From: a virus
Length of the DNA: 64,000 nt
Virus record (IMG/VR): IMGVR_UViG_3300028844_005117
Span: 1-64,000 of that record
Strand: one strand, 5' to 3'
Made by a program: the position numbers and the translations under genes. Numbering within the stretch: position 1 is the stretch's first letter; the number at the start of each line of letters is the position of its first letter. Below, piece by piece: positions 393 to 56,832 of the stretch. The notes under the pieces were generated by a model, which worked only from the letters and a program-made list of their open reading frames with translations, was not told where the DNA came from and did not search any database.

Positions 393-557
393 TCAATTAT
401 CCAAATTATCTTTATCTTTTTTTATTTCCTTTAAAAGTGATGGTAGTGCTTTTACCATCTTATATAGACCAGCATGTTTTTCTTCTTTTGAAATATGACA
501 TTCACAATTCTCAATTGTTTGTGGACATGTTGGACATTCTTCTACTTCTTTTTTCAT
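393..557 (-). CDS. 54-aa hypothetical protein with CxxC...CxC (not in ORF track)
   Basis: Hand translation MKKEVEECPTCPQTIENCECH...; ATGA overlap with the YopX stop. Confidence 0.55.
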   Translation of the reverse strand: MKKEVEECPTCPQTIENCECHISKEEKHAGLYKMVKALPSLLKEIKKDKDNLDN

Positions 558-1021
558 GATATTACTTTTGTTTTATATTCATCCCATTTCTCTTCAAATG
601 TATGTCCAATTACTTCACTATCGGTATGTCCAATAAATTTGAATCCCCTACCATCGCTATGTAAATTAAGTCCAAGTTGAACAGCTTGGAATCCACCATG
701 AAGCCAAATAACTTCATAATATTTAACTGTTGGGTTTCTGACAACAAGACCATTCTCATCCCATTCACCACCGAAGGTAATAATATCACCCTCGTATATA
801 TCTTTATTATCCTTAGATTGTAATCCAGTCCATTGTTGAAGTATTCCATTCAAATCATCAGTCTCTCCCCAATAGACAACTTTAGTATCCAGCCATTCTT
901 GACCACTACAGAAGTCCCATTTACCATTACCGTATAGATATATCTTAGTATTCTCATTTTCGTAGAAGTGTTTTTTACTTGGTTTATCCCACGCTCTGTA
1001 TTTATGTTCTCTAGTTTCCAT
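554..1021 (-). CDS. YopX family protein
   Basis: REHKYRAWD, QWTGLQSKDNKDIYEGDII and EVIGH motifs. Confidence 0.85.
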   Translation of the reverse strand: METREHKYRAWDKPSKKHFYENENTKIYLYGNGKWDFCSGQEWLDTKVVYWGETDDLNGILQQWTGLQSKDNKDIYEGDIITFGGEWDENGLVVRNPTVKYYEVIWLHGGFQAVQLGLNLHSDGRGFKFIGHTDSEVIGHTFEEKWDEYKTKVIS

Positions 1022-1023
1022 TG

Positions 1024-1359
1024 TTAATGTATTAAAATACTCTCTTTGGTATCGTGATATTTATCAAATCGCTCAACATCGTATTTAACACCGCCATTCC
1101 ACCCGTCTAACGCTTTGTAAGTACCAGCGTTAGGTCCACGCTCATATGTTGTCTGAATTACTGGTGTGTATATCCCACTAGCCTTAGTTGGGAATTGTAG
1201 ACCTCTAATTTCTGCTTCCTCGTCATAGTAGATTTGTTTCTTGGTACCTAATTCGATTTTTCTAATCATAATAGGTTGAACTGAACTATCTCTGAATGTC
1301 ATTACCTCTTGGTCTTGGTCATATTCTGACAATATCTTTATTAAATCTTTAACTTTCAT
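1024..1359 (-). CDS. hypothetical protein
   Basis: MKVKDLIKILSEYDQDQEV start is common in phage small proteins; tightly packed operon. Confidence 0.7.
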   Translation of the reverse strand: MKVKDLIKILSEYDQDQEVMTFRDSSVQPIMIRKIELGTKKQIYYDEEAEIRGLQFPTKASGIYTPVIQTTYERGPNAGTYKALDGWNGGVKYDVERFDKYHDTKESILIH

Positions 1360-1915
1360 AATTATATTTTTCTTTACAAAATTTCTTGAATTTGAATATT
1401 CTATCCCAAAGTGTCATCTTTTTAAAGTCAGTTATTATATAGTTATCAATACTATACATCCCTTTTACAATCTCTTCATTGTGACTCATTTCTTTCTTTG
1501 TTTCACTAAGTTTATGATTAAGGTCTAATATGTCTTTACAGAGTCTTAGACTATGTCCCTTAAAATCTTTTCTAAGTCCAACAATCTCACGACCATGTTC
1601 ACGTGATAATTCGAGATATCGATGGCGTTCGGTCTGTAATTTATCCTCATATTCTTCACAACTTCTCATGTAAGCATAGTTGTCGATTAGGACTGGCATT
1701 CTATCACCACCCATAAGCATCTTATTAGGTTGCTTAAGTGATATTGGAATCCCATTCTTATTTCCAACTTCTTTAAGTAATTGTCTAGCTTGATTCATAT
1801 TCCCACCAACAACAAAGAAGGGTTTATTATAATGTCTAGCACCCTCTTTTAATAGTGTGGTGTGACCAGCACCTCTAGAGGTCTTTAGATATGTGTATAC
1901 GTGTTCTTTTTTCAT
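1349..1915 (-). CDS. small P-loop/terminase-ATPase-like domain plus coiled coil
   Basis: SRGAGHTT (Walker A-like), VVGGNMNQA, VLIDN (Walker B-like). Confidence 0.5.
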   Translation of the reverse strand: MKKEHVYTYLKTSRGAGHTTLLKEGARHYNKPFFVVGGNMNQARQLLKEVGNKNGIPISLKQPNKMLMGGDRMPVLIDNYAYMRSCEEYEDKLQTERHRYLELSREHGREIVGLRKDFKGHSLRLCKDILDLNHKLSETKKEMSHNEEIVKGMYSIDNYIITDFKKMTLWDRIFKFKKFCKEKYNYES

Positions 1916-2076
1916 AATAATTTATTATAATCATCTGCTAAGATAGCAACATAGGTATCACCCCACCATCCAAATGCACATTCATCAAATACCTTCTCCA
2001 TCTTAAATTCCTTAGAGTTGAAGTTATTAATTTTAATGTATGTTGATTCATTAGGGAATCTTACGTGTATCTCCAT
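1912..2076 (-). CDS. 54-aa hypothetical protein (not in ORF track)
   Basis: MEIHVRFPNESTYIK...DDYNKLL; start and stop both overlap neighbouring genes. Confidence 0.6.
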   Translation of the reverse strand: MEIHVRFPNESTYIKINNFNSKEFKMEKVFDECAFGWWGDTYVAILADDYNKLL

Positions 2077-2603
2077 TATCTTCCAATTAAAAGTCTTCTA
2101 CGATTAGTCTTGATACCAATTATTTTAGTTAGTTCCGATAATACTTCCTTATCAATCCCATCAGCAAATTGCTCTGATAACATAGCCGTTAATTCAGCCT
2201 CAGCATCTGTATTAGATACTGTCCAACCATTACGACCAGTACTATTTTCACTGACTTTACGAATGGACCCATCAACACTCGTTAATTTCTTTACATAATC
2301 AGTAACAACTAACATATGACTATGACCAGCGTTACCAACAATCTTTATAATATTCTTATTTGATTCAGTGAATATTACTTTATACCTACTACCAAAAGAA
2401 CCGTTATTATAGTGTTCCAAGGATTCTATAATCTTTTTTATATTTGATGAAATATATAAAAGATTACCACCACCACTATTATATTTCCTATGGATAATAG
2501 CGGATAGTTCATTGATTTTAGTCATCAATGTTTGATTCCATGCAGATTGTGATGGAAAATTACCATTAGGGGGGTTATATGACCAAGTTAAATTACTACG
2601 CAT
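2076..2603 (-). CDS. permuted mini major-capsid-protein homolog
   Basis: WNQTLMTKINELSAIIH and DAEAELTAMLSEQ match the MCP at 36761-38530, but in reversed order. Confidence 0.85.
   Translation of the reverse strand: MRSNLTWSYNPPNGNFPSQSAWNQTLMTKINELSAIIHRKYNSGGGNLLYISSNIKKIIESLEHYNNGSFGSRYKVIFTESNKNIIKIVGNAGHSHMLVVTDYVKKLTSVDGSIRKVSENSTGRNGWTVSNTDAEAELTAMLSEQFADGIDKEVLSELTKIIGIKTNRRRLLIGR
2169..2207 (-). repeat. 39-nt exact inverted copy of MCP sequence 37901-37939
   Basis: Reverse complement gatgctgaggctgaattaacggctatgttatcagagcaa is identical to 37901-37939. Confidence 0.95.
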
Positions 2604-2769
2604 CTCTTAGTTTGTTTAGTAATATATAATTATCGTAAGTAAGTGTCACTTCAACATCCTTAGGTGTACGTCTTGAATGGTGCCACTTGATATCTATTTC
2701 ATCACCATAATATAGAATGTCTTTTAATTTATCCATACATTCACGTTTCACATATATTGTTATCTTCAT
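2596..2769 (-). CDS. 57-aa hypothetical protein (not in ORF track)
   Basis: MKITIYVKRECMDK...; overlaps both neighbouring genes. Confidence 0.6.
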   Translation of the reverse strand: MKITIYVKRECMDKLKDILYYGDEIDIKWHHSRRTPKDVEVTLTYDNYILLNKLRDA

Positions 2770-3149
2770 AATCCTATTAATAAAAGTTTTCGGTTTGTTT
2801 TAATTTCATCCTTAATTTCATCTTTAGTCATTATAGAATTGTACATGAACTCACTAAGTGGAATTGCCCTACCTCTAAAGCTTCTGATGGGGTTAAAATG
2901 TGTTGGGTCGTAGGTTGTTGGTCCGAAGTATAAGGAATCACCTTGTGGGTAAATAACTATCTTACTAAATGGGTTTCCTTCAATGAATTCCCTAATAGAT
3001 TTTCTATAGGTAAGCATCGGATACGTTTTATTGCTTACTTTTCCATTTTCATCACAATCAATATGTGTATATGTTGGCATGTCTACGACCTCAACCAACG
3101 GCATTTGTTCTAATTGTTCACGTGTATAATCTTCCGTTATTTGACTCAT
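2766..3149 (-). CDS. hypothetical protein with MCP C-terminal-like motif
   Basis: GPTTYDPTHFNPIRSFRGR resembles MCP TPTMYNPFNFAPVKGIMTR; ends IKTNRKLLLIGL. Confidence 0.7.
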   Translation of the reverse strand: MSQITEDYTREQLEQMPLVEVVDMPTYTHIDCDENGKVSNKTYPMLTYRKSIREFIEGNPFSKIVIYPQGDSLYFGPTTYDPTHFNPIRSFRGRAIPLSEFMYNSIMTKDEIKDEIKTNRKLLLIGL

Positions 3150-3167
3150 AATTTCTAAATATTAACA

Positions 3168-3246
3168 CAAATATATTATAAAAAACACTACCATGCAATA
3201 ATTTCTCAAAATAGATTGTATATATGAAAAGAATTTACTATATTTG
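3168..3246. promoter_or_regulatory. divergent Bacteroidota-type -7 promoter boxes
   Basis: TATATTTG on minus at 3168-3175 and on plus at 3239-3246 (TAnnTTTG consensus). Confidence 0.6.
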
Positions 3247-3700
3247 CACTGTGAAAATACTGACTAGATTATTTAGGAAAAAGAAAAATCATTATGATTT
3301 CAAATTTATGGAATTCGATGATGGGGATGCTTGTGCTAGTTTCACAACTAAACATGGGTTTGTTTATTTAGTTGAGTTGGATTGGGGTGATGGTGTTTTT
3401 GATGTGGAATTTGGTTTAATTAACGCTAAGATATACAATACAACTAACGCTCACGACCAATACAAGATTTTAAATACAATTAGTGAAGTGGTTAAGGTTT
3501 CGATTAAGCATGCTAAAAAAATGACTGGTGAAGAATTCCATAGTCTTGAATTCAAGAGTAGTAAGATTAGAAATGGTAATGAGGATAATAGTGATAAAAT
3601 CAGAAATAGATTTTTCATTAGATTTATTACCAGAGAATACCCAGATGCAAAGATAAGTCATCGAAAAGATGGGTCTGTCTTAATTAGACTTATTGGTTAA
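3224..3700 (+). CDS. hypothetical protein (true start probably 3251 or later)
   Basis: Long ORF; the promoter box lies inside the annotated 5' end. Confidence 0.7.
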   Translation: MKRIYYICTVKILTRLFRKKKNHYDFKFMEFDDGDACASFTTKHGFVYLVELDWGDGVFDVEFGLINAKIYNTTNAHDQYKILNTISEVVKVSIKHAKKMTGEEFHSLEFKSSKIRNGNEDNSDKIRNRFFIRFITREYPDAKISHRKDGSVLIRLIG

Positions 3701-7947: not shown

Positions 7948-8502
7948 ATGAAAAAGTTATTATTTGTATTAGCATTAGCACTTACCTTCACTTCTTGTCA
8001 GAAAGAAGATATCCAACCAAACGTAGAGATTGTTGAGGTTGAAGAAACTGGAATTGACTTATATGGTGAATGGAGATTGTTAGACGGTCAAATGTTTATT
8101 GAAAACATGGATACTGGTGTTAACTCTGTATACGACCACTTTAGTCCAACCAAGCCAACATCAAGTCTTAGATATGAAGGAGCACAATTCGAATTCGAAA
8201 CAATCGAAGCTGGTGTTACTACATGGGAGTTTATTGCAGCACCTAATTTAGGTGCCTATGGTGAATTCATCTTAAATGGTGATACAAACGAACCTTACGG
8301 ATTAAATATCACCAATAGTCATTGGACAGTTATGGAACACGCTACTGGCGCATCACAATTAGGTGGGTCATCTAGACCAATATCAGCTGAGGTTGAGAGT
8401 TATGATGATAATATTGTTGTATTCTTAGTACAAGAAGGTAGCACATCGATTGGTGGTTATAACTGTATGTATTATTCAAAATTAAGGTTTCAAAAACAAT
8501 AA
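7948..8502 (+). CDS. lipoprotein, possibly lipocalin-like beta fold
   Basis: Lipobox LTFTSC; LYGEWRL; TATATTTG box at 7917-7924. Confidence 0.7.
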   Translation: MKKLLFVLALALTFTSCQKEDIQPNVEIVEVEETGIDLYGEWRLLDGQMFIENMDTGVNSVYDHFSPTKPTSSLRYEGAQFEFETIEAGVTTWEFIAAPNLGAYGEFILNGDTNEPYGLNITNSHWTVMEHATGASQLGGSSRPISAEVESYDDNIVVFLVQEGSTSIGGYNCMYYSKLRFQKQ

Positions 8503-11974: not shown

Positions 11975-13402
11975 ATGAGTAAATTAGACGTAACCGAAAG
12001 GTTAGCATTTTTAGCGGAAAAGTTTGATGTGTTTGAAACAGATTCAGATGGTAACGCTAATGATAAACGTAATAGTTTACATGAGGAAGGGTGGGAAAAA
12101 ATAAAAATATATGGTGGTCGTGAAAATCACTTGGTGATTGCTGTAGTATCATCAAAACCAAATAAAAGGGGGTTCCCTATTATTAAAGTTAGTGTAGCAT
12201 ATAATGTATTTACGGCTATGGTTGGTGCTGACCCGACACCGAACAAAATTTGTTTACAATGGATGCTTAATACATTCTGTAGAGATTTAAAGGAGGGGTA
12301 TGATGCTGAGGCAAGACGATTTGTTGAAGAGGACTTACCACAAGCTAATGAATACTTAACACTATTCGAGGCGAATAAAAGAAAGAAGAAGTTTAGGGAG
12401 ATGGCTGAATATAGTCTTAAGGGGTTTAAGGACATCACCAACATAAATGAATATAGAAGTTTAAGTCAATTATTTGATGCGGTAGACCCGTTCATTATAA
12501 GAGACCCAAGCGAGATTGAAAGTATAATGAATAGATATGTAAATATGGGACAAGCAACAATACCGTTTAAAGATAGACGATACACGGTATTTGTTCCTAA
12601 AACATTGGATGCTAATGTTATCTTTGATAGGTTTTCAAGTTGGTGTACAGCTAAGGCTGGTAATGGCATGTTTAAAAATTATACTGAGAATTATAGAAAA
12701 CCCAATGGTGATAAAGCAGATATCTACATTGTCATTGATAATGGGTTCTTTGAAGGGTTAAATGAGAATATTTATCAGTTACACTTTGAAACTAGACAGA
12801 TTAAGGATAGGAGTAATAGTATACATAAGAATACTGATTTATATGATGAAGTCTTAACAAGAAGTGTTGGGTTAACAAACTACTTAGGTAGTGAGTTGAT
12901 GGGGATGGCTAAGGATTTTAAAGACGGTGTTGATAGTAACTATTATATTGATATCTTGACTGAGTTTGGGTTTACTGAATCGTTGTTTGAATTCTTTGAT
13001 GAAGAGACACCGATTATAAAGATTGATTCTGGGACTTCAAATAAGAAGCGTAAGGTACCTAAATTACCAGATGTATCTAGATTTAAAGAATTAGAGATGA
13101 TGGTTATTATGGATTCATCATTATCAGTTTTACATCCATCGATTGGGTCATTGAAAAATTTGATGCTTCTTTCGTTGAATGGGAATAAAATAAAGGAATT
13201 ACCAAGTGAATTAGGGAAACTTAAAAACTTAGAGTTTCTTAACTTAGTTGGGAATCCCATTACGGTTATTCCAGAGTCAATTAAGATGTTAGATAAGTCT
13301 AGAGGTGGGAAACTATATAGACTAGCGATAAATAAAAAAGATATTAGTGAGAACAATTATCAAAAATTAGTGGAACTATTACCAAGTGTAAAGTTTAACT
13401 AA
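11975..13402 (+). CDS. leucine-rich repeat protein with N-terminal WCT-motif domain
   Basis: C-terminal LxxLxLxxNxIxxLP repeats; SSWCTA motif; TACCTTTG box at 11951. Confidence 0.8.
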   Translation: MSKLDVTERLAFLAEKFDVFETDSDGNANDKRNSLHEEGWEKIKIYGGRENHLVIAVVSSKPNKRGFPIIKVSVAYNVFTAMVGADPTPNKICLQWMLNTFCRDLKEGYDAEARRFVEEDLPQANEYLTLFEANKRKKKFREMAEYSLKGFKDITNINEYRSLSQLFDAVDPFIIRDPSEIESIMNRYVNMGQATIPFKDRRYTVFVPKTLDANVIFDRFSSWCTAKAGNGMFKNYTENYRKPNGDKADIYIVIDNGFFEGLNENIYQLHFETRQIKDRSNSIHKNTDLYDEVLTRSVGLTNYLGSELMGMAKDFKDGVDSNYYIDILTEFGFTESLFEFFDEETPIIKIDSGTSNKKRKVPKLPDVSRFKELEMMVIMDSSLSVLHPSIGSLKNLMLLSLNGNKIKELPSELGKLKNLEFLNLVGNPITVIPESIKMLDKSRGGKLYRLAINKKDISENNYQKLVELLPSVKFN

Positions 13403-18090: not shown

Positions 18091-20523
18091 TTATTTTGTT
18101 TTTGGTTTCTTCTTTTTGATAACCTTTATCACTATCTTCTCGGACTTTTCATCATAATCAATCCTTAGTGTATCACCTTCTGATGCGTTACCAGATAAGA
18201 CTTCATCAGCAATTGGGTCTTCAACATATCGTTGGATTGTTCTAGCTAATGGTCTTGCACCGTACTCTGGGTCATATCCTTTATCTGCTAAGTACTTTAT
18301 AGCATTCTTACCCAATTTAAGTTCAAACCCCATTTCATTTATCCTTCCTTCTAGGTTTTCTAATTCATTATAAATGATTTTGTGAATATCTTCTGAACTA
18401 AGTCCGTTAAATATAACTGTATCATCAATTCTATTAAGGAATTCTGGTTTGAATTTCTTCTTGAGTGCTTTTTCGATAATATTTCTTGCTCGTTCTTCCT
18501 CATTTGCAATCTCTGCACCAGTATTGAACCCTAATCCTGTTCCGAATTGAGATAATTCTTTGACACCAATGTTAGATGTCATGATGATAAGTGTATTTCT
18601 AAAGTTTACCTTCCTACCAAGTCCATCAGTCAAGTGACCTTCATCTAGTAGTTGTAAAAGTAGATTGAATACATCGTCATGTGCTTTCTCAATCTCATCA
18701 AATAAGATAACTGAGTGTGGTTTTCTACGAACCTTTTCAGTCAATTGACCACCTTCTTCGTAACCAACGTAACCTGGCGGTGGACCAATAAGTCTAGACA
18801 CTGAGAACTTCTCCATATATTCAGACATATCCATTCTAAGAAGATTATCTTCATCACCGAATACATGCTCTGCTAGTAATTTAGCTAGGTATGTCTTACC
18901 AACACCTGTAGGTCCAAGGAAAATGAATGAACCAATTGGTTTCTTACGGTCTTTAATTCCGATACGACTTCTCTTGATTGCCTTAACAACTTTATTTACT
19001 GCATCATCTTGTCCAATAACTTTACCAGTTAAGTCTGTATCCAATTCAAGTAACTTCTTACTTTCTTGTGTAGATATCTTAGATAATGGAATACCAGTCA
19101 TCATTGATACAACCTCACTAATCAAGTCCACATCAACAACAGTTTGTTCTTTAGACATACTCTCAATCCAAATATCCTTAGCTTTAGTCAACTCATCGTT
19201 TATTTTACGTTCCTCATCTCTAAGTGCCGCAGCCTTCTCGTATTTCTGTTTAGTAACAACTAACATTTTTTCCTCCTTGATAACATCTATCTTAAGTTCT
19301 AGTTCCTTTATTTCCTCTGGAGTCTCAACATTTACATTTGTTGATGAACCAGCCTCATCCATGATGTCAATTGCCTTGTCTGGCATTGCTCTATCAGAAA
19401 TATATCTATCAGCCATTTTAACACATTCCTCAATAGCTTCATCAGTATAGGTAACCTTGTGGTGTGCCTCGTATCTATCACGAATATTTTTAAGTATTGT
19501 AATTGTTTCCTCTAAACTTGGCTCTTCAATTAATACTTGTTGGAATCTTCTTGTAAGTGCACCATTGTTTGATGCATCTAAAGAACCAGAAGCATTACCA
19601 GCCCCAACAATTGTATGGATTTCATCAATAAATAAAACAACATCTGGGTTCTTCTTTAATTCTTCAAGGATAGCTTTCATTCTTTCCTCAAATTGACCTC
19701 TATATTTTGTACCAGCAACAATAGATGCTAAATCCAATGAATATAATTTCTTATCTAAAAGTGTTATTGGTGCCTTACCATCTTTGATTAGTTGGGCTAA
19801 CCCTTCAACGATGGAAGTTTTACCAACACCTGGCTCACCGATAAGAATCGGATTATTCTTCTTTCTTCTAGATAGTATTTGTGAAACTCTCTTGATTTCT
19901 TTCTCACGTCCAATAACATGGTCAATCTTCCCTTCATCAACAGCCTTGCTGATATCACGACAAAAGTTATCTAAGACTGGTGTTTTAGTAGCACTAATTT
20001 TCCCCTTAGATTTTTTACCACCAGTTCCACCTTCGTTACCAAAATCATATTCATCTTCATTTGTGGAATTATTAATATCTTCTCTCATTTGTTTAATCAT
20101 TTGTTTAAAACTCTTATAATTCACACCCATATTTAATATAATCTTCTTAGTTTGTGTATTATTCTTTAGGATTGCTAACATTAAATGTGTGGTGTCAATC
20201 ATAGTATCATCAACTCCTTCACACTCTTCATCAACAGAATTAAAGATAAGTTTGGTTATTTTACAGAATGGTCTCTTTAACTTCTTAGCATTAACTAATC
20301 TAGGTGTTAAGTCTGATTTGTTTAAGTGGTCATAGACTAAGTCATAGAGTATATTGATATCTACACCTAGGGCTTCTAAAATATCAATACATTTATTGTT
20401 ATTATTTTTTATTATCGAAAGTGTGATGTGTTCTGGTCTAACATTTACATCATCCATATCTTTCGCTATAACCATCGAGTCATTGATGATTCTTTTTACT
20501 TTTGGTATTATTTCTCTCTTCAT
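18091..20523 (-). CDS. clpC: ClpC/ClpB-family AAA+ chaperone with internal in-frame deletion
   Basis: Clp-N domain, GEPGVGKT, FIDEIH, UVR coiled coil, GPTGVGKT, GYVGY, FDEIEKAH; start MKREIIPK at 20523 with TATATTTG upstream. Confidence 0.9.
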   Translation of the reverse strand: MKREIIPKVKRIINDSMVIAKDMDDVNVRPEHITLSIIKNNNNKCIDILEALGVDINILYDLVYDHLNKSDLTPRLVNAKKLKRPFCKITKLIFNSVDEECEGVDDTMIDTTHLMLAILKNNTQTKKIILNMGVNYKSFKQMIKQMREDINNSTNEDEYDFGNEGGTGGKKSKGKISATKTPVLDNFCRDISKAVDEGKIDHVIGREKEIKRVSQILSRRKKNNPILIGEPGVGKTSIVEGLAQLIKDGKAPITLLDKKLYSLDLASIVAGTKYRGQFEERMKAILEELKKNPDVVLFIDEIHTIVGAGNASGSLDASNNGALTRRFQQVLIEEPSLEETITILKNIRDRYEAHHKVTYTDEAIEECVKMADRYISDRAMPDKAIDIMDEAGSSTNVNVETPEEIKELELKIDVIKEEKMLVVTKQKYEKAAALRDEERKINDELTKAKDIWIESMSKEQTVVDVDLISEVVSMMTGIPLSKISTQESKKLLELDTDLTGKVIGQDDAVNKVVKAIKRSRIGIKDRKKPIGSFIFLGPTGVGKTYLAKLLAEHVFGDEDNLLRMDMSEYMEKFSVSRLIGPPPGYVGYEEGGQLTEKVRRKPHSVILFDEIEKAHDDVFNLLLQLLDEGHLTDGLGRKVNFRNTLIIMTSNIGVKELSQFGTGLGFNTGAEIANEEERARNIIEKALKKKFKPEFLNRIDDTVIFNGLSSEDIHKIIYNELENLEGRINEMGFELKLGKNAIKYLADKGYDPEYGARPLARTIQRYVEDPIADEVLSGNASEGDTLRIDYDEKSEKIVIKVIKKKKPKTK

Positions 20524-20529
20524 ATCTTC

Positions 20530-20593
20530 CAAATATACTACAAATTTATTATTAAAACAACCTTGATTTTTAATAATAAATAGCGTATATTTG
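20530..20593. promoter_or_regulatory. divergent Bacteroidota-type promoters (clpC / KTSC-thyA)
   Basis: TATATTTG on minus 20530-20537 and plus 20586-20593. Confidence 0.65.
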
Positions 20594-20633
20594 GAGTATA
20601 ACGAAAATAACAAAAAAGTAAATCTTAAAACAC

Positions 20634-21086
20634 ATGTTAGTAAAAAGAACAGAAAAAGACGGAGTAGTAAATGCACTCTATGATTCAAGCAATATTCTAG
20701 GCTCAAAATGGAATGGAAAAAATTTAACCGTACTCTTTAAGCACGGTGCATCATACACGTATAACGATGTATCTAAAACAGACTATATGAGATTCGAGAC
20801 TGCTGACAGTCAAGGTGTGGTATTAAACGCTAAGATTAAAGCATATAGCTTTACTAAGAATGATGCTGTTGATGGTCAAGAATTAATCAACGAAGTAAAC
20901 CAAGCTAAAGCTGATACCCTTACTAAATTTGAGGAAGGTCTTGTTGATGAGATGAGACTTATTGTTTCTGCTTATGAAACTAGTCCAATATTAACTAAAC
21001 AATCAATCGAAAGACTTGGGGAGATGCTTGTAAAGCATGGTGAGTTAGGTGGAGCCGCATCATTAAAGCTTTGTGCTTGTGATTAA
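20634..21086 (+). CDS. KTSC-domain protein
   Basis: SSNI...LTVLFKHGASYTYNDV...ADSQG. Confidence 0.75.
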   Translation: MLVKRTEKDGVVNALYDSSNILGSKWNGKNLTVLFKHGASYTYNDVSKTDYMRFETADSQGVVLNAKIKAYSFTKNDAVDGQELINEVNQAKADTLTKFEEGLVDEMRLIVSAYETSPILTKQSIERLGEMLVKHGELGGAASLKLCACD

Positions 21087-27175: not shown

Positions 27176-28081
27176 ATGGTAAGTATTGATATTACAAAGG
27201 AATACATTAAATGTGTTAATAACCCTCAATATTCTATTGAGAATTATTTTAAGATTTGGAATAACGTGGTAGGTGATTATGTACCGTTTAAGTTGTTATC
27301 AAATCAAAAACTAGTTATAGACGGTTACGAAACAAATAAACTAAATATAGTTAAGAAATATAGACAAGCTGGTATATCATCTATAAGTGAGGCTTATTTG
27401 TCACATAAGGTGGCTTTCAGTGACCCAGACAACCCAGAATTGGTTATGGTGGTATCAAATAAGTTAGATTTGGGTAAACATATGTTAGCTAAGATGAAGA
27501 ACTTTTTATTAACTTTACCTAGATGGGTTTGGGGTTCAGAATACTATGGTTCAGAAGAAAATGAAAGTAAGTCAATTTTTATAGTAGACAATCAAGTAGA
27601 AGCTGTATTACCAAATGGTTCTATGATTAAGGTCACCTCATCCAGACCAGATGCATTCAGAGGGTGGGCACCAACATATATATTAATGGATGAGGCAGCA
27701 TTTATTGATAAGAACGATGAGTTATTTATGGCTACTTATGCTTCACTAGCTGTTGGTTGTAGGTTGATTATGGTTTCAACCCCTAATGGTATGGATGGAT
27801 TATTCCATAAAACTTTCATGGGTGTTGTTTGCGGTCAAAATAATTTCAATTTAATTGAATTGAACTGGTGGGATGATGAACGATTCAATAAAGACCTTAA
27901 ATGGGTTATTGAAATAGATGGTAAAATAATCGACACCTTAATTGGGGTTTTACCAGAATATTATGATAAAGTAATACTTGCTGGTTATAAACCAACAAAT
28001 GAATGGTATGAAAAAATGCGAATAATGCTTAATTATAACGAAAAACAACTCCAACAAGAGATGGGTGGGTTTGTGATTTAG
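27176..28081 (+). CDS. terminase large subunit paralog, ATPase domain only
   Basis: KYRQAGIS, LMDEAAF, STPNG; colinear with the N-terminal half of TerL; no nuclease domain. Confidence 0.85.
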   Translation: MVSIDITKEYIKCVNNPQYSIENYFKIWNNVVGDYVPFKLLSNQKLVIDGYETNKLNIVKKYRQAGISSISEAYLSHKVAFSDPDNPELVMVVSNKLDLGKHMLAKMKNFLLTLPRWVWGSEYYGSEENESKSIFIVDNQVEAVLPNGSMIKVTSSRPDAFRGWAPTYILMDEAAFIDKNDELFMATYASLAVGCRLIMVSTPNGMDGLFHKTFMGVVCGQNNFNLIELNWWDDERFNKDLKWVIEIDGKIIDTLIGVLPEYYDKVILAGYKPTNEWYEKMRIMLNYNEKQLQQEMGGFVI

Positions 28082-28092
28082 AGCTATTTGGG

Positions 28093-28132
28093 CTTGTTAA
28101 CATATTTATAATAAAAAGAATATGTTAACAAG
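28093..28132 (+). promoter_or_regulatory. 14-bp hairpin overlapping the late motif and sequestering the terL ATG
   Basis: cttgttaacatatt / aatatgttaacaag perfect inverted repeat; TATTTATA at 28103-28110. Confidence 0.75.
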
Positions 28133-29936
28133 AGCCGAAATATATAGTGAGTATGCCAATTGTTTGAAGGACCCAATCTATGCTATCGAAAACTTTTTAG
28201 AAACTTTCGATAAGACACAGGAAGGGTATGTACCATTCAAATTATTCCCAAGGCAAAGGCAGATTGTTAACGCTTATGAGAAACATAGATATAATTTAGT
28301 TACCAAGCCAAGGCAAGCTGGTATATCTACCACTACACAAGCTTATATGGCGGTTAAAGCTGGTTTTGCTGATAAGGATAACCCAGAGGTTATACTTGTA
28401 ATTGCAAATAAGCTTAAATTATCACAAAAATTTTTAAAGGGTATTAAGGATTATCTAAAGCAATTACCAAGATGGATATGGGGTTCTGATTATTATGGTA
28501 CTGAAGAAAACGAAAGAAAATCAATCTTCGTTGTTGATTCTAAGATAGAAATCGAATTACCTAATGGTTCACAAGTTATTGCCGTTGCGACATCGGAAGA
28601 TGCACTTCGTGGATATACACCAACATATCTTGTATTTGATGAGGCAGCCTTCATTGATAATGGTGACGCTGTATATGCAGCTGCCATGTCATCAATATCT
28701 ACTGGTGGTAATGTGATTCTAATTTCCACACCAAACGGTATGGACCCACTTTACTATAAAACATACGAACAATCTAAATCTGGTGATAATAATTACCATA
28801 TTGTTGAAATGCGTTGGTTTGAAGACCCACGATACAATAAAGACCTTAGATGGTACAAGAAAGTTGAGGGTGATGATAATGATGATATTGTAGAGAAGGA
28901 AGTTGAGTTTAATCTTGAATCTTATCTTAAGAGAATTGAAGATGATTGGAAACCAACATCAACATGGTATGAGAACATGTGTATGGCACTTAATAATAAT
29001 TCTAGAAAGATTGCACAGGAGTTAGATGTATCATTCTTAGGTTCTGGTGGTAACGTTATTGAAGATGAGACCATTGAAATGCACGATAAGAAAAATGTTC
29101 GTGACCCTAAATTCGTTGAGGGTGTTGAACAAGAGTTTTGGATATGGGAAGAACCTATAGTGGACCATAAATATATTATGGGTGTCGATGTATCAAGAGG
29201 TGATGGTGAAGATAGTTCAACAATAGTTATCATTGATTTTACAACCATGGAACAAGTAATGGAGTATCAAGGTAAAGTACAACCAGATATACTAGCTCAA
29301 TATGTATATGATTACGGTAATATGTACAACGCATACACTGTTGTCGATATTACAGGTGGTATGGGTGTCTCAACGGTACTTAAGTTGATTGAATTGGATT
29401 ATAGTAAGAAACTATTACATCATGATAAACAAGCAATGGGTAAGGTTTTAGCTAACCAATCTAGATTAGGTTTGGTTAAGGAGAATGAAAAGGTGCCAGG
29501 TTTCAACGCCAATGGAGTTCGTCTTCCAATGATTTCAAACATGGAAAAGGTATTAAGAGAGAACTTCGTTAAGATTAGGTCAAGAAGAATGGTTTCAGAA
29601 ATGAAAACATTTATATATAAGAATGGTAGACCAGACCACATGGATGGTTACCACGATGACCTTCTTATGTCATTGGGTATGGCTATGTGGGTTCTTGAAT
29701 ATTCATTTAAAAACCTTAAGAAAGCTACGGCTCAAAATAAAGCGATACTTAACAGTTGGACCACTGGTGGTCAGAATGTTGAGGAAATCAATAATAAAAG
29801 TTACGATGGTGGATTTGTATCTAAGGATAACAAGGGTAAGAAAACTGCTCCTAGACCAAGATTTAATCCTAACGTATCAAACAACATGCAAGACCCTAAC
29901 GGGGACTACATGTGGTTATTTAGTGGAACAAAATAA
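28122..29936 (+). CDS. terL: terminase large subunit (T4 gp17-like)
   Basis: KPRQAGIST, VFDEAAF, STPNG; nuclease motifs GVDVSRG and HDDLLM. Confidence 0.95.
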   Translation: MLTRAEIYSEYANCLKDPIYAIENFLETFDKTQEGYVPFKLFPRQRQIVNAYEKHRYNLVTKPRQAGISTTTQAYMAVKAGFADKDNPEVILVIANKLKLSQKFLKGIKDYLKQLPRWIWGSDYYGTEENERKSIFVVDSKIEIELPNGSQVIAVATSEDALRGYTPTYLVFDEAAFIDNGDAVYAAAMSSISTGGNVILISTPNGMDPLYYKTYEQSKSGDNNYHIVEMRWFEDPRYNKDLRWYKKVEGDDNDDIVEKEVEFNLESYLKRIEDDWKPTSTWYENMCMALNNNSRKIAQELDVSFLGSGGNVIEDETIEMHDKKNVRDPKFVEGVEQEFWIWEEPIVDHKYIMGVDVSRGDGEDSSTIVIIDFTTMEQVMEYQGKVQPDILAQYVYDYGNMYNAYTVVDITGGMGVSTVLKLIELDYSKKLLHHDKQAMGKVLANQSRLGLVKENEKVPGFNANGVRLPMISNMEKVLRENFVKIRSRRMVSEMKTFIYKNGRPDHMDGYHDDLLMSLGMAMWVLEYSFKNLKKATAQNKAILNSWTTGGQNVEEINNKSYDGGFVSKDNKGKKTAPRPRFNPNVSNNMQDPNGDYMWLFSGTK

Positions 29937-30230: not shown

Positions 30231-32276
30231 ATGGCTAAGAAGAATTTGACGGTCTTTCAGAGAATGAATAATATGTTTGGACCAGATGGTGTAAATGTAC
30301 CTAAGGAAAAAACAAACAGATATTCAATTGGTAACGGTGAGTTGTTAAAAACTACTGATAAAGCTGAATATGAAACTCAGAAATTACAAGCACAACAAAA
30401 TAAATATGTTGGTGGGTTATGGAAAAAGGTTGATGGTGAATTATTCCAACAATCAATTCATTATGAAACAACACGTATTGGTTCATATTCCGATTTCGAG
30501 AATATGGAGTTCTATCCAGAAATTGCAGCTGCTCTAGATATCATGATGGAAGAGGCAACTACAGTTAATGATAAAGGTGAGGTACTTAATATTTATTCTG
30601 ATTCAAAGAGAGTTAAGAAGATACTTAAAGACCTATTCAACAATAGACTTGATTTACATACAACGCTTCCTATGTGGACTAGAAACACATGTAAGTATGG
30701 TGATGACTTTGTATATCTTAATATAGATGATAAGGCTGGAATTATTGGGGTGAGACAAATGCCTAACTTCGAAATGGAAAGAAGAGAGGGGAATATGTAT
30801 GATGCTATTTCAAGAAGTACGGATGATAGTGATGATGGTAAAGTGAAGTTCTTTTGGAAGGGTAGAGATATTGAATTCTCATCATGGCAAATGGCACACT
30901 TCCGTTTATTAGGAGATGATAGAAGATTACCTTATGGTACATCGGTACTTGAAAAGGCTAGAAGAATTTGGAAACAACTTCTTTTATCTGAGGATGCTAT
31001 GCTTATCTATAGAGTAACAAGAGCACCAGAGAGAAGAGTATATAAGATTTATGTTGGTAACATCGATGATGAAGATGTAGGACCATACGTAGATGAGATT
31101 GCAAATAGATTTAAACGTATGCCAGTTATTGACCCACAAACAGGTCAAATTGATTTAAAATATAATCAAATGGCGAATGACCAAGATTTCTTTATTCCTG
31201 TTAGGGATGAGAGCGCACCTAATCCAATTGATACACTTGCGGGTGCACAGAACTTAGACCAAATTGCAGATATTGAATATCTTCAAAGAAAATTGTTTAC
31301 AGCACTTAGAGTACCTAAATCATTCTTAGGATTTGAAGATGCTGTTGGTGAAGGAAAGAACCTTGCCTTGCAAGATATTAGATTCTCAAGAACAATCAAC
31401 AGAATTCAACAAGCGATGATTCAAGAGTTAAATAAGATAGCAATTGTTCACTTATATATTCTAGGATTTGAGGAAGAGTTAGATAACTTTACACTTACAC
31501 TTAATAACCCATCAGTACAAGCTGAGATGCTTAAGGTTGAACACTTACAATCTAAGATGACACTTTACAAGGATGCAGTTAATGATGCTGGTAATGGGTT
31601 CGGTGCTATGAGTATGACTAAAGCTAAGAGAGAAATTCTTGGATGGTCAGATGATGAAATCAAACAAGACCTTCTTGAACAAAGAATGGAGAAAGCGGCT
31701 GCTGCTGAACTTGAGAACACTTCTAACGTAATCAAGAACACTGGTATGTTTGATAAGGTAGATAGAATTTATGGTGATATCGAACTTGCTAAACAAGGTG
31801 GTGCACCAGAAGGTGAAGAAGGTGGTGACGCAGAAGGTGGTGGTCCAGCTGGTGGAGGTGGAGGCTTCGGAGGTGGAGGCTTCGGAGAAGAAGACTTAGG
31901 ATTAGACGCAGAAGGTGGTGAAGACTTTGGTGGTGAAGATGCTGGTGGTGAAATTGATTTTGGTGAAGAAGATGCTGGTGCGGATGCTGGTGGTGAAGAC
32001 ATGGGTGCTGAGACTACTGAGGAATCAATCAAGCAAGCTGAAAATTTACTTACAGAGCAAAAAGCTTTACTTAAAGGTAAGAGTATACTTAGAACAAATA
32101 AACATAATAAAACTTATTTAGATAGGTTAAGTGAATCAATTAAGAAGGATGATTCCCCAAATATTATTAGAGAAAAGATATACGATAAGAACTTGAAAAT
32201 AAATGAAGATGTTGACAATATGATTGGTGATATCAATAAAATGATTGATGAGTTGGATGACACTATAGGAGAATAA
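30231..32276 (+). CDS. portal protein (T4 gp20-like)
   Basis: YGTSVLEKARR, EDAMLIYRVTRAPERRVYKI, DIEYLQRKLFTALRVPKS; acidic Gly-rich C-terminal tail. Confidence 0.93.
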   Translation: MAKKNLTVFQRMNNMFGPDGVNVPKEKTNRYSIGNGELLKTTDKAEYETQKLQAQQNKYVGGLWKKVDGELFQQSIHYETTRIGSYSDFENMEFYPEIAAALDIMMEEATTVNDKGEVLNIYSDSKRVKKILKDLFNNRLDLHTTLPMWTRNTCKYGDDFVYLNIDDKAGIIGVRQMPNFEMERREGNMYDAISRSTDDSDDGKVKFFWKGRDIEFSSWQMAHFRLLGDDRRLPYGTSVLEKARRIWKQLLLSEDAMLIYRVTRAPERRVYKIYVGNIDDEDVGPYVDEIANRFKRMPVIDPQTGQIDLKYNQMANDQDFFIPVRDESAPNPIDTLAGAQNLDQIADIEYLQRKLFTALRVPKSFLGFEDAVGEGKNLALQDIRFSRTINRIQQAMIQELNKIAIVHLYILGFEEELDNFTLTLNNPSVQAEMLKVEHLQSKMTLYKDAVNDAGNGFGAMSMTKAKREILGWSDDEIKQDLLEQRMEKAAAAELENTSNVIKNTGMFDKVDRIYGDIELAKQGGAPEGEEGGDAEGGGPAGGGGGFGGGGFGEEDLGLDAEGGEDFGGEDAGGEIDFGEEDAGADAGGEDMGAETTEESIKQAENLLTEQKALLKGKSILRTNKHNKTYLDRLSESIKKDDSPNIIREKIYDKNLKINEDVDNMIGDINKMIDELDDTIGE

Positions 32277-34366: not shown

Positions 34367-35080
34367 ATGTCAAACAGGTTAAATGAAGATATTAAATTAC
34401 TAAAGGCTGGTGATGTCGGGTTTGGGTTCATGATTGAACACGATGCTGGATTCATCGACCCTAACGATTCACGAAATGAAAAGTTCGTAAATGAGGTTAA
34501 GAAATTAGCTTCTGGGGAGATTGCAATGATAGAGCCATTAGTAGTTACTGTAGTATTACAGAAATGGGGTGTTAAGAATAGGAATGGTAGAATATACCCA
34601 GAGAGAATACTTAAGGCTCAAGCTGAGGCATACAATGAATTAATCAAGAACAAATCTGCATTAGGTGAATTAGACCACCCAGAGTCATCCATTATAGCTG
34701 GTGACAGAGTATCTCACAACATAACTAGAATATGGTGGGAAGGAAGAACTCTAATGGGAGAGATGCAAATCAATACAACATTAGGATTTATCAATATGGG
34801 TATCTGCTCTACCAAGGGTGATGAGGTTGCTAACATGCTTAGACATGGTTGGAGAATCGGAGTATCATCTAGAGGTGTAGGTACACTTGAAGAAGATTAT
34901 GAAGGAAATGCAATCGTTCAAGATGATTTTGAATTGATTGGTTGGGATGTTGTTACAGCACCATCAACTCCAGGTTCATGGATATTTGGAAACAAAAAAG
35001 ATGCGGCTCCTTTCATGGAATCAAAAATAAGGGAAGACAAGTCTTTAGATGATGACTTAGATAAATTCTTATTGGGTTAA
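34367..35080 (+). CDS. prohead core protease (T4 gp21-like)
   Basis: NRNGRIYP, ALGELDHP, GVSSRGVG, DVVTAPSTPG. Confidence 0.93.
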   Translation: MSNRLNEDIKLLKAGDVGFGFMIEHDAGFIDPNDSRNEKFVNEVKKLASGEIAMIEPLVVTVVLQKWGVKNRNGRIYPERILKAQAEAYNELIKNKSALGELDHPESSIIAGDRVSHNITRIWWEGRTLMGEMQINTTLGFINMGICSTKGDEVANMLRHGWRIGVSSRGVGTLEEDYEGNAIVQDDFELIGWDVVTAPSTPGSWIFGNKKDAAPFMESKIREDKSLDDDLDKFLLG

Positions 35081-35203: not shown

Positions 35204-36733
35204 ATGGCTAAAAAGAATAAATCAATTATTGATGAAGCGGTACTGGATGCGAAAAGAATCCAAGAAACTTTAAATGCCAACACAAAAGAAATACTTCGTT
35301 CGATTGCGAAAGAAGAAATTGATGACCTAGTGAAAGAATCTCTTAACGAGTTTGATGAAGAAGATGTTGAAGAACCAATAGATGCAGATGCTGTAGATGG
35401 TGGAGAAGTAGACGTAGATGCTGAGGCACCTATGGATGTTGATTCAGTTGATGTAGATGGAGCTGATATTGAAGGTGAATTAGAAATTGGAGAACCCGAA
35501 GAAGGTGACTTAGAAATAGGTGACGAAGAATTAGGAATGGACGCTGAGGTGTCGATGGGTGACGAGATGGATATGACAGCCGCATCAGATGATGACGTTA
35601 TCGCAGTTTACAAGAAGTTGACTGGTGATGATGAAATCCAAATCGTAAGTAATGAAGCTGGAGATATCGAGTTAACTGTTAATGAACCAGGTGAGTTTGT
35701 AATTAAAACTGGTGAAGATAACGGTGGTGTTGAAGCGGAACCAGAAATGGGACTAGAACCAGAAATGGAATTAGAACCAGAAATGGATGCAGAACCAGAA
35801 ATGGGAATGGACGCAGAAGTGGGTGCAGAACCAGAAATGGATGCAGAACCAGAAGCTGACTCAGAATATGAACTTACCGCTGGTGAGGATTCAGAAGAAG
35901 AGGAAGAAGAGGAAACTTACGAAGAAAGTTACGATGTGAATGAATCACAAGTTGTATACGAAATAGCAATAGATGAAATGGAAAACATAGAAAGTGTTAG
36001 CGCACCTGTCGGAAATGAAAATGAAGACAATTGGGCTGGTGATAATCTTGAAGGTGGTTTTGACGATAATGGTCAAAACGGAACTGGTGATGCTCACGGA
36101 GAACACATAATGGAAGATGAAAACGTAAATGAAGATGAAACTGTAACGGAAGAAGAAACTGTAACAGAAGAAACTATCGAAGAAGCTATCCCTAAGGGAC
36201 AAGGTGAAGCACATAGAGTGCCAGCTAAAGCTGACATCGGACAACCAGTAGCACCAGGTGCGAAGGGAGTTACAGGTGTAAAAGGTGGTGCAAATGAATC
36301 TAAATTCGTTTCTAAAGAAGATTACGATAAACTACTTAAGGAAGCTAAAGCACTTAAAGGTAGAGCTACACAAATGGCTGAAACTTTACAAGAGCAAAGA
36401 AGAATGTTAGGACAAGTTGTTGTATTCAATACTAATCTTACAAATGTAACTAGATTATTTACTGAGCATTCTACAACTAAAGATGAAAAGAGAAACATTA
36501 TCGAAAGATTCGATGAAGAAGTATCAAGCATTCAAGAGTCAAAAAGACTATTCAAGTCTATTGAAAAGGAATTAGGTAATAAACAACCAATGAACGAATC
36601 AATAGAAGGGAAAATTTCCAAGGAAGCATCAAGTAGTACTTCAAAATTAAATGAAAGTACTGCATATGTAGACAAGGACACTAAAAGAATAATGGACCTT
36701 ATTTCTCGTGTAGAGAACAAGGACAAATATTAA
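35204..36733 (+). CDS. prohead scaffolding/core protein
   Basis: Lies between protease and MCP; very acidic; C-terminal coiled coil. Confidence 0.75.
   Translation: MAKKNKSIIDEAVLDAKRIQETLNANTKEILRSIAKEEIDDLVKESLNEFDEEDVEEPIDADAVDGGEVDVDAEAPMDVDSVDVDGADIEGELEIGEPEEGDLEIGDEELGMDAEVSMGDEMDMTAASDDDVIAVYKKLTGDDEIQIVSNEAGDIELTVNEPGEFVIKTGEDNGGVEAEPEMGLEPEMELEPEMDAEPEMGMDAEVGAEPEMDAEPEADSEYELTAGEDSEEEEEEETYEESYDVNESQVVYEIAIDEMENIESVSAPVGNENEDNWAGDNLEGGFDDNGQNGTGDAHGEHIMEDENVNEDETVTEEETVTEETIEEAIPKGQGEAHRVPAKADIGQPVAPGAKGVTGVKGGANESKFVSKEDYDKLLKEAKALKGRATQMAETLQEQRRMLGQVVVFNTNLTNVTRLFTEHSTTKDEKRNIIERFDEEVSSIQESKRLFKSIEKELGNKQPMNESIEGKISKEASSSTSKLNESTAYVDKDTKRIMDLISRVENKDKY
35738..35857 (+). repeat. 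EPEM coding tandem repeats (about 18-nt units)
   Basis: gaaccagaaatgg repeated. Confidence 0.85.
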
Positions 36734-53628: not shown

Positions 53629-54294
53629 TTAATTTACTTTATATATTAATTCGGAGCATGACGTTAGTCTACCACCCCAGTTTGCCTTATTTAAAATCTT
53701 AACATCCATCTTAGTTAAATTAAAGTTGGTTGTTAGGTATGTGTGCCACTCCGCACCAGTCTTAACGTTACAGTGGACATGTCGTTCCTCTGGTTTCGTA
53801 TATAACCAATTAGCCGCAGATGCAATTATACATGTATCTGACTTAGAGTGTTTAATTAGATTACTCATGAATACATCAAAACTACTAGGTTCAATGTGTT
53901 CAAAGTGTTCAAATGAACAGATTAAATCGAATATAATTCTCTCACCATTCTCATCAACCAATTCATAATCAACATCCGTTCTTAATATGAAGTGATTATC
54001 TAAGTCGAGGAATGGACTATTAACAGTTTCCTTATTCCCATCTAGTGTTACAATAACCAAATCTGGATTTAGTTTTAATAACCAATGTCTTAAATGACCA
54101 GCCCCCGAACCAACATCTAGAACATACTTCACATCTTTGAAGTTGTCTAATATATCCTTAGACAAATTTTCAAACATATTATGTAATGCGTCACAAGTTG
54201 GACCTTCGAAATGAAGACCGTCATGGTGTTGGTAACCAGCTACAGTTTCTGAGGCATCAATCCCAACGTTTTCAGTATTTGTTTGTTTAATCAT
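53629..54294 (-). CDS. class I SAM-dependent methyltransferase
   Basis: VLDVGSGAG; FEHFEHI. Confidence 0.85.
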   Translation of the reverse strand: MIKQTNTENVGIDASETVAGYQHHDGLHFEGPTCDALHNMFENLSKDILDNFKDVKYVLDVGSGAGHLRHWLLKLNPDLVIVTLDGNKETVNSPFLDLDNHFILRTDVDYELVDENGERIIFDLICSFEHFEHIEPSSFDVFMSNLIKHSKSDTCIIASAANWLYTKPEERHVHCNVKTGAEWHTYLTTNFNLTKMDVKILNKANWGGRLTSCSELIYKVN

Positions 54295-56136: not shown

Positions 56137-56832
56137 TTATTTTATTTTCTTTAGAATGAACCCAATATCATTGGTATCTAATGGGTTATATGTGTGTCTA
56201 GGTGATGCGTTAAAGTCGAATCCGATATCTTCAAGACCACATTCTTTAAAGGTCTTTAACCACCATTCATTAGACTTAATACATTGATGGTTCTTACCTT
56301 CAACCAAATTAATCAGACAGATAAAGACACCATCATCATTAAGATGTTTCTTAATGTTATTCAAAACACTAGGTATATCTTCTGGTTTCGGGTGCTCTAA
56401 AACATCCCAAGCGGTGATAACATCAAACGTTTGTTCACCAGTATCGTTAAACATTTGGAATGGTTTTGTGATGTCTGCTTTAAAGAGACACTTATCCTTA
56501 AGATTCAACCAATTATCATGAATGTCCTCAGTAAGTTTACTGGTATCACCAATATACCTAGGTTGTGGTTTTATTCTATTTTTCGATATTTGTATCATCT
56601 TAGATAAATCACTACCTTCAACCCCAACAGCAACATTACCCATATTATAGACATCAACTACTGATTGACCACCAGCACAACCTAAATCCATATAGGAAAA
56701 GTCTTCTTTGTTGGTGATTCGTTTTAGTTCCTCTAAGTATACTGGGTTAGAGTGATTATTTTGTGCAGCCCCTTGTATTGGATTTTCAAAGTCTGGTCCA
56801 ACAGCATTCGGGTGATTAGTTTCTATTCTCAT
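56137..56832 (-). CDS. class I SAM-dependent methyltransferase
   Basis: MDLGCAGG; FDVITAWDVLEH. Confidence 0.85.
   Translation of the reverse strand: MRIETNHPNAVGPDFENPIQGAAQNNHSNPVYLEELKRITNKEDFSYMDLGCAGGQSVVDVYNMGNVAVGVEGSDLSKMIQISKNRIKPQPRYIGDTSKLTEDIHDNWLNLKDKCLFKADITKPFQMFNDTGEQTFDVITAWDVLEHPKPEDIPSVLNNIKKHLNDDGVFICLINLVEGKNHQCIKSNEWWLKTFKECGLEDIGFDFNASPRHTYNPLDTNDIGFILKKIK

Follow-up and report, generated by a model that had tools for sequence, protein, structure and literature searches.

Gene organization of the locus

We analyzed a stretch of 64,000 nucleotides (nt), hereafter the window, which is the first 64 kb of the 72,682-bp IMG/VR record IMGVR_UViG_3300028844_005117 (CheckV completeness ~20%; G+C ~33% in the window), and in it a minus-strand row of small genes, one of which encodes a 175-amino-acid (aa) protein that derives from the major capsid protein (MCP) and shares its C-terminal tail with a 127-aa protein of the same row. 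The source is a marine T4-like phage, probably of jumbo size. The Pfam scan placed the large terminase (TerL) at 28122-29936 (Terminase_6N), the portal at 30231-32276 (Portal_T4, E 6.5e-77) and a gp23-type MCP of 589 aa at 36761-38530 (Gp23, E 7.4e-71), and the prohead protease lies at 34367-35080; the MCP matched T4 gp23 at E 5e-27 (solved gp23 chains at E ~1e-27) and gp24 at E 4e-8. DNA holding the gene-row stretch is contained in marine metagenomes, no close phage was found in GenBank (two weak matches over 8 kb), and scanning the window for Rfam families and tRNAs gave no match.

Read from its first gene, the row consists of the 127-aa protein (2766-3149), a 57-aa micro-open reading frame (micro-ORF; 2596-2769), the 175-aa protein (2076-2603), a 54-aa micro-ORF (1912-2076) and a 188-aa protein (1349-1915), all on the minus strand. 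An earlier reading of the same DNA (the original prediction) had described these genes as translationally coupled, and this is borne out, with stops and starts overlapping or abutting at every junction (ATGA, TAATG, and overlaps of 8 and 11 nt). Its proposal of two unannotated micro-ORFs stands in part: the open frames fit exactly between their neighbors (4- and 8-nt overlaps around the 57-aa frame, TAATG and ATGA junctions around the 54-aa frame), and for neither were homologues or other signs of coding found, with no family of weight in Pfam, PHROGs, NCBIfam or PADLOC. A duplicated two-gene module was also considered, and was dropped because the two micro-ORFs are not similar to each other.

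Capsid ancestry of the 175-aa protein

The row had been said to contain two MCP fragments, which holds for the 175-aa protein; the 127-aa protein is only marginally MCP-like (see below). The 175-aa protein scores 25.2 bits against Pfam Gp23 (PF07068; cut-off 24.4, E 1.3e-5) and matches PHROG 138 'major head protein' at E 6.8e-4. According to BLASTP, its residues 5-104 resemble residues 414-533 of the window's own MCP (32% identity, E 8e-14) and its residues 131-160 resemble MCP 379-408 (70%), the second piece thus being swapped in order relative to the first. A search of a 5.8-billion-protein collection gave two matches among 50 candidates, one of which is the query itself; the other, P0003 (170 aa, 72% identity), is the sole relative of similar length that we found. 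P0003 runs colinear with the C-terminal part of MCP, which resolves the swapped order, and when a profile of both proteins was compared by hhalign with a 16-sequence MCP alignment, positions 4-166 were paired with MCP 413-582 (98.85%, E 4.2e-17). Of the first 111 residues, 103 (93%) are identical to P0003, and aa 4-111 (2271-2594, minus strand) form an MCP-like domain, which includes the block WNQTLMTKIN.

The protein is colinear with MCP 413-582 only, carries two loop deletions and ends in the added tail (175 versus 589 aa), and we read it as an MCP derivative and not as a complete HK97-type capsid subunit with N-arm, E-loop, P and A domains. From the gp23/gp24 structures, we take MCP 413-582 to be mostly the axial domain plus the last strands of the peripheral domain. 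Searches with tblastn against GenBank phages matched two MCP genes only, the profile found no PDB chain at E <= 1, and a metagenome scan with an alignment (A1) returned an identical 2.2-kb contig and a 1.07-kb contig lacking upstream context, and nothing else.

Comparison of the conserved part of the protein with 34 MCPs, taken from the window and from related IMG/VR contigs, gave identities of 32.6-38.3% throughout, the resident MCP being no exception at 37.9%. In a tree of 37 sequences (two of 39 were dropped, the region being too short) the fragment branches outside the MCPs as a whole, and its branch is long. This low, even identity and the long branch argue that the gene is an old, diverged derivative of MCP that was not copied recently from the resident one.

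A C-terminal tail shared by two proteins

The 127-aa protein and the 175-aa protein end in a common tail of 12 residues, IKTNR[RK]xLLIG[RL], which reads IKTNRKLLLIGL in the former (2769-2804, minus strand) and IKTNRRRLLIGR in the latter (2079-2114, minus strand). Among the 653 ORFs of at least 25 aa in the 72.7-kb record, these two are the only ones that carry it. The codons of the two genes differ at 7 of the 9 identical tail residues, which argues for selection on the peptide and not for a DNA repeat. P0003 has the tail unaltered; the two relatives of the 127-aa protein that were found are P0004 (96%) and P0005 (64% over the full length), and P0005 has TNRKLLLIGL. When the 127-aa family was compared with P0003 by hhalign, the tail alone aligned (13 columns, E 0.0017).

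In both families, the sole indel or unalignable stretch lies immediately before the tail. Together with the conservation of the tail, its position points to a layout of conserved domain, variable linker and conserved tail; in the 127-aa protein the domain spans aa 1-106 and the variable linker that follows is short and contains an indel; the linker of the 175-aa protein is allele-specific and spans approximately aa 112-162 (2119-2268, minus strand). Stop-codon readthrough or a frameshift past the tail would add only one to four further codons. The basic-then-hydrophobic pattern of the tail may resemble C-terminal docking or recognition peptides of AAA+ systems, such as the SspB tail and the MuA end, and more loosely the cargo-loading peptides of encapsulins.

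The MCP likeness of the 127-aa domain is marginal. The protein matches no Pfam family (and nothing of weight in PHROGs, NCBIfam or PADLOC), no relative was found in the IMG/VR scan, BLASTP against the window's own MCP gave one 29-residue match (E 0.002), and hhalign against the MCP profile gave a probability of 1.5% (E 0.033). Its Smith-Waterman score was reached by 28 of 2000 shuffles, and that of P0005 by 164 of 2000. The best local match overlaps the same C-terminal MCP stretch (~533-561 of the window's own MCP) in all six MCPs tried, and PTxYNPxxFxP is a common element of that stretch in most of the six.

Gene conversion and a second allele

Within the linker, a 68-nt patch at 2140-2207 (minus strand), encoding DAEAELTAMLSEQ..., is 90% identical to the stretch 37901-37968 (plus strand) of the resident MCP gene, with 39 nt perfect; the pair forms the longest and best inverted repeat (I1) in the window. 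The likely donor stretch encodes the most conserved MCP helix, and the site that received it is the region just before the tail. We read the patch as a recent gene conversion from the resident MCP gene. The original prediction had called the capsid-like proteins self-derived mimics, a description that fits this patch and does not fit the rest of the 175-aa protein, which is equally far from all 34 MCPs.

A second allele was found when contigs from four runs of another study were compared with positions 1000-3300, of which they cover a part; pieces of only 33-41 nt with 3-6 mismatches, which belonged to long foreign contigs, were left aside. An 848-nt marine DNA contig from run X4 has no difference over 1630-2118, has 135 other letters in place of 2119-2268, and has 11 differences over 2269-2492, of which all eight listed are nonsynonymous. 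The changes reproduce P0003 exactly (K57D, E60K, H64F, F70I, S72G, T101S), and the contig and P0003 may derive from the same data. The break at 2118 falls one residue before the invariant end G163-R175, which bears the 12-residue tail, and both alleles (175 and 170 aa) keep the open frame and the tail. As the identical flank holds ~95 synonymous sites and no change among them, the 175-aa gene is a local hot spot, shaped either by selection for change or by imported sequence. Such fast nonsynonymous change is compatible with a role in an arms race, and is not proof of one.

A diversity-generating retroelement was rejected as the origin of the variable region, as the changes are not confined to adenines; no reverse-transcriptase gene was noticed among the window proteins that were Pfam-scanned, which cover part of the window.

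These data also bear on whether the gene is debris, that is, an old partial MCP duplication in a hyperplastic region that is kept open only for the translational coupling of downstream genes. The listed allele substitutions, all nonsynonymous, are compatible with relaxed constraint (P = 0.086), the linker takes foreign sequence, and the 175-aa protein gives no confident fold. We nevertheless consider this explanation very improbable: the frame has stayed open although only 33-38% identity to MCPs is left (by an estimate from base composition, a 175-codon open frame arises by chance at 33% G+C with a probability of ~1e-6), the two alleles are both unbroken and close in length, the two genes encode the conserved tail with different codons, the N-terminal 111 residues are 93% conserved, and the 127-aa family keeps 64% identity from end to end.

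Stand-alone capsid fragments in other phages

Loci fetched by MCP-like patterns contained 60 matches in full-length frames, 14 that were cut by locus ends and five in short frames, these five representing two distinct genes of IMG/VR phages. One is a 161-aa ORF between SSB-like and UvsX-like genes (L004:1843-2328) and the other is a 169-aa ORF in a run of small genes (L051:2953-3462; no Pfam Gp23 match in that record). Both fragments start at the MCP boundary of the 175-aa protein and shorten the same loop (by the L003/L004 alignment, and by eye for L051), and they share the ending ...I[LV]NY[EQ]. Free-standing copies of the last third of MCP thus seem to have arisen more than once.

A repeated origin would suit an inter-phage weapon, in which a capsid fragment made early poisons the capsomer assembly of co-infecting relatives (a dominant-negative effect) and the resident MCP has diverged to escape it. 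The retained MCP blocks, the accessory position of a probably early gene and the fast protein change agree with this idea, as do the similar fragments found repeatedly in other T4-like phages. A fresh patch taken from the phage's own MCP, however, is the opposite of self-avoidance, and neither the shared tail nor the 127-aa protein would be explained; we regard this as the least probable of the explanations weighed here.

A separate observation at L051 concerns a small lipoprotein-like ORF (L051:1309-1596), of a kind also seen in the window at 123-359 and 7948-8502. Its signal peptide starts with MRKLLLIGLFGLLLSC, and the first residues look like the tail found in the window (RKLLLIGL). This likeness is probably a coincidence of the basic-then-leucine pattern.

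Position and candidate promoter signals

The row lies 33 kb from the head genes and on the opposite strand. Of 103 crude ORF calls, 13 have the octamer TATTTATA in the 80 nt before their start, and in 10 of these 13 it lies 11-17 nt before the start, including TerL, the prohead protease and the gene starting at 32323; before the portal the distance is 33 nt. In the ten cases at 11-17 nt it stands on the coding strand, before the starts at 4920 (minus strand), 7404, 10393, 22475, 28122, 32323, 34367 and 42205 (minus strand), and in the remainder of the record before 70973 (minus strand) and 71037. The octamer shows no overall enrichment, and we consider it a candidate late-gene control motif. 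In the 80 nt upstream of the row led by the 127-aa gene it is absent; found there instead is TATATTTG (TAnnTTTG; 3168-3175, minus strand), which precedes the first start codon by 18 nt and is a candidate for a -7 promoter box of host type. We take TAnnTTTG to fit the housekeeping promoter box of Bacteroidota, both the consensus and the host being our assumption. Because TATTTATA is absent and TATATTTG stands in its place, the row is probably not co-regulated with the head genes and is probably early.

Position and signals likewise bear on a role in head assembly or as cargo, in which the tail would dock inside the HK97-fold shell or on the scaffold, and the proteins would be packaged or would tune assembly. 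C-terminal docking has precedents in the cargo-loading peptides of encapsulins and in the C-terminus of the P22 scaffolding protein. The 175-aa domain is capsid-derived, and the LLIG of the tail may loosely resemble encapsulin loading peptides. The row, however, is remote from the head genes, lies on the opposite strand and lacks TATTTATA, and cargo targeting in T4-type phages is known to use N-terminal and not C-terminal peptides. We therefore hold such a role to be unlikely.

The 188-aa protein and the genuine terminase paralog

For the 188-aa protein, the original prediction had proposed a compressed echo of the terminase ATPase motifs. The quoted strings are indeed present (SRGAGHTT, VVGGNMNQA and VLIDN in the 188-aa protein; PRQAGISTT, VIAN and VFDE in TerL), and the relation they were taken to indicate did not hold up. 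BLASTP to TerL gave E 0.05-0.09, hhalign of its 81-sequence family (see below) against TerL gave 0.44% (E 0.13), all-against-all BLASTP of the ORFs did not pair the protein with TerL, no Pfam family matched, and the predicted fold is without a terminase match. Structure comparison of the product of 1349-1915 gave no PDB match at E <= 0.001, and none of the 50 matches listed is a terminase; the best Foldseek match (E 0.24) and its neighbors are methyltransferases and signal recognition particle GTPases.

An exhaustive profile search places the protein in a family of 125 representative clusters (E <= 0.001), all of 97-232 aa, which match mostly through the first ~100 positions. In an alignment that combines the window protein and P0012 with the best 79 of the 125 clusters (81 sequences in all), R14 and G17 are conserved in 80 of 80, T19 in 76 of 80, H18 in 60 of 80, P74 in 78 of 81, D78 in 80 of 81 and N79 in 56 of 81, giving the motif R14-x-x-G17-H-T-T ... 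P74-x-x-I-D78-N. Five of the 81 members weakly match Pfam AAA_14 (best E 4e-4). The AlphaFold2 model built on this alignment has a predicted local distance difference test score (pLDDT) of 91.9 (an earlier model from a four-sequence alignment, pLDDT 63, was discarded) and shows a helix, a loop, a helix, three strands with helices, and one helix at 79-165; the protein would thus consist of an N-terminal alpha/beta domain of ~80 aa, the long helix, and a conserved MxLWDRxF end. The RxxGHTT loop is predicted to follow a helix, not a strand, there are only three strands in the model, and the motif lacks the Walker lysine and the preceding strand. We conclude that the 188-aa protein belongs to a widely distributed family of small phage proteins with a degenerate nucleotide-loop-like motif and a coiled coil, and is not terminase-derived.

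The closest structural neighbors of its N-terminal domain in BFVD are uncharacterized phage proteins of 99-178 aa (best E 5.9e-3; target-normalized template modeling score at most 0.61). Examples of ~100-130 aa come from Pseudomonas phage VSW-3, Acinetobacter phage Aristophanes and Escherichia phage RB43; the ESM Atlas agrees, with viral protein clusters of 106-124 aa that resemble the domain. The 188-aa protein differs from the BFVD neighbors by the extra ~85-residue helix and the conserved C-terminal motif, and none of them matches at E <= 0.001. The IMG/VR scans contained no relative of the protein, and tblastn against GenBank phages with it and with the family member P0053 gave no match. 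The family, with its 125 clusters, is far broader than the one or two relatives known for the 175- and 127-aa proteins, and the genes of the row are therefore not co-conserved as a unit.

A genuine terminase paralog is encoded elsewhere in the window. The ORF at 27176-28081 (plus strand, 301 aa) is 43% identical to TerL 2-301 (300 aa, E 1e-98), keeps Walker-type motifs (RQAGIS, MDEAAF and STPNG are retained), and lacks the nuclease domain. It lies directly upstream of terL, ending 41 nt before it; TATTTATA occurs between the two at 28103-28110 and does not occur in the 80 nt upstream of the paralog. Judged by its sequence, this ORF is of the 'truncated large terminase' or T4 vs.8 kind (Evans et al. 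2026, PMC13601566), to which the 188-aa protein shows no relation. A false lead is thereby removed: the 188-aa protein is no terminase mimic, and the real terminase paralog is 27176-28081.

Co-expression of T4 vs.8, a stand-alone protein resembling the TerL ATPase, with the terminase sensor EcAvs2 is reported to be toxic, and vs.8 thus activates the sensor; the authors discuss whether proteins of this kind might be anti-defence factors which the sensor has come to recognize (PMC13601566). As vs.8 activates EcAvs2, a plain look-alike of a trigger is not obviously protective.

This weighs on the function that the original prediction had assigned to the row, a counter-defence cassette of self-derived mimics that saturate or block the sensors of capsid and terminase (Avs and others). 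A genuine MCP-derived protein is present, it keeps the most conserved MCP blocks (WNQTLMTKIN and, via the patch, DAEAELTAMLSEQ), it changes fast at the protein level between strains, and MCP is an established trigger of several sensors, as two reports state for Avs7 and Dsr1 (bioRxiv 10.64898/2026.01.04.697583) and for CapRel (PMC13728456). Nevertheless, neither sequence nor profile nor fold links the 188-aa protein to terminases, it belongs to a broad independent family, the bulk of the 175-aa fragment is not self-derived, the known terminase look-alike activates its sensor instead of blocking it, and the literature searched (narrow, with subscription journals outside it) contained no capsid-protein decoy. 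We find a cassette of this kind quite improbable.

Other genes of the row and of the record

The row extends beyond the five genes discussed above, with a 111-aa protein (1024-1359, minus strand; nothing of weight in Pfam, PHROGs, NCBIfam or PADLOC), a YopX-family gene (554-1021, minus strand; Pfam E 2.8e-12) and further small genes up to the contig end. None of the small proteins of the row has a PADLOC match of weight.

All-against-all BLASTP of the ORFs found three paralog pairs in the record: MCP and the 175-aa fragment, TerL and 27176-28081, and 53629-54294 with 56137-56832 (minus strand), the last being weak paralogs (24% identity over 72 aa, E 5e-4). Other features include a ClpB/ClpA-like double AAA+ protein of 871 aa at 18091-20706 (minus strand; Clp_N, AAA, AAA_2 and ClpB_D2-small domains), whose N-terminal ~165 residues match no family, and a 475-aa protein at 11975-13402 (plus strand) with C-terminal leucine-rich repeats (LRR_8, E 1.2e-8). 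The C-terminal part of the portal ORF contains acidic tandem repeats in 15-nt units of the GGE/GAD type (31811-32027), and a 509-aa ORF just upstream of the MCP gene contains seven 18-nt acidic repeat units of the EPEM type (35719-35884); this ORF has no Pfam match and may be a scaffold-like candidate.

Possible function of the tailed proteins

We favor, with a probability of roughly 40%, the reading that the row consists of small accessory genes outside the head module, in which the 175- and 127-aa proteins are tail-tethered binding modules. The shared tail would dock both proteins on one common putative receptor, the variable linker would serve as a tether between domain and tail, which would explain why it accepted both the replacement and the MCP patch, and each domain would bring or hold a client at the receptor. 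For the MCP-derived domain, the client would be a recognizer of that part of the capsid, which could be a host factor or sensor, a chaperone, or MCP itself.

Adaptors of AAA+ proteases of the SspB type combine a substrate-binding domain, a flexible linker and a short C-terminal docking peptide. The proteins described here resemble them in having a domain, a variable linker and a short basic/hydrophobic C-terminal peptide, with one tail on two different domains, of which one copies a part of the phage's own capsid protein; they differ in that there is no sequence relation, that the tagged proteins are two in ~20% of a genome, and that the receptor is putative here. The T4 head vertex protein gp24 and the other accessory paralogs of the gp23 family (PDB 1YUE, 5VF3, 7VS5) are alike in that the 175-aa protein also derives from the gp23 family. 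T4 gp24, however, comprises the whole HK97-fold subunit and its gene belongs to the head module, whereas the 175-aa protein is MCP 413-582 only, is encoded among small accessory genes and ends in an unrelated tail. Accessory capsid-gene paralogs in T4-type hyperplastic regions are already known, and here such a paralog carries a portable tail.

Several observations weigh against tail-tethered binding modules. The receptor and the binding of the tail to it are putative, and the shared tag rests on two proteins, because a back-translated tail pattern had no match elsewhere in IMG/VR and ~20% of the genome is in hand. The stand-alone fragments at L004 and L051 lack the tail seen in the window, and the L003/L004 fragment is 46-47% identical to MCPs and 30% identical to the 175-aa protein, to which such fragments are thus no closer than MCPs are. 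The stand-alone fold of the 175-aa protein is without a confident prediction (an ESM Atlas model has pLDDT 0.37 and gave no usable feature matches). The excess of nonsynonymous differences between the alleles (11 of 11) has P = 0.086 against neutrality and is not significant alone, and the second allele may have been imported by recombination. As to expression, the motifs behind the promoter reading are short and AT-rich, TATAAATA shows no overall enrichment (20 matches versus 14.0 +/- 3.6 expected), and three short contigs from RNA libraries that lie on 1247-1534, 1281-1488 and 2988-3154 with 0-1 differences give only a hint that the row is expressed, because these libraries may hold DNA.

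Beyond binding as such, the tail might serve a bait-and-dispose form of counter-defence and not a passive decoy. A recognizer of the capsid, such as a host immune sensor, would be caught early in infection and handed via the portable tail to an unfoldase or protease, and T4-like phages would have made such baits repeatedly; we consider this quite unlikely. A narrow search of full-text literature, with subscription journals outside its range, found neither capsid-protein decoys nor truncated MCP accessory genes of the 175-aa kind, and the accessible part of an overview of phage countermeasures from November 2026 mentions no capsid decoy (PMC13728456).

For tail-tethered binding modules, the setting is that capsid and terminase proteins are now known as main triggers of bacterial immune sensors (PMC13601566; bioRxiv 10.64898/2026.01.04.697583). 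An intact, fast-changing protein that derives from the capsid and carries a conserved docking-type tail is a candidate for a phage answer to such sensing that goes beyond point mutation; equally, it could be a head-assembly helper that has so far gone unrecognized.

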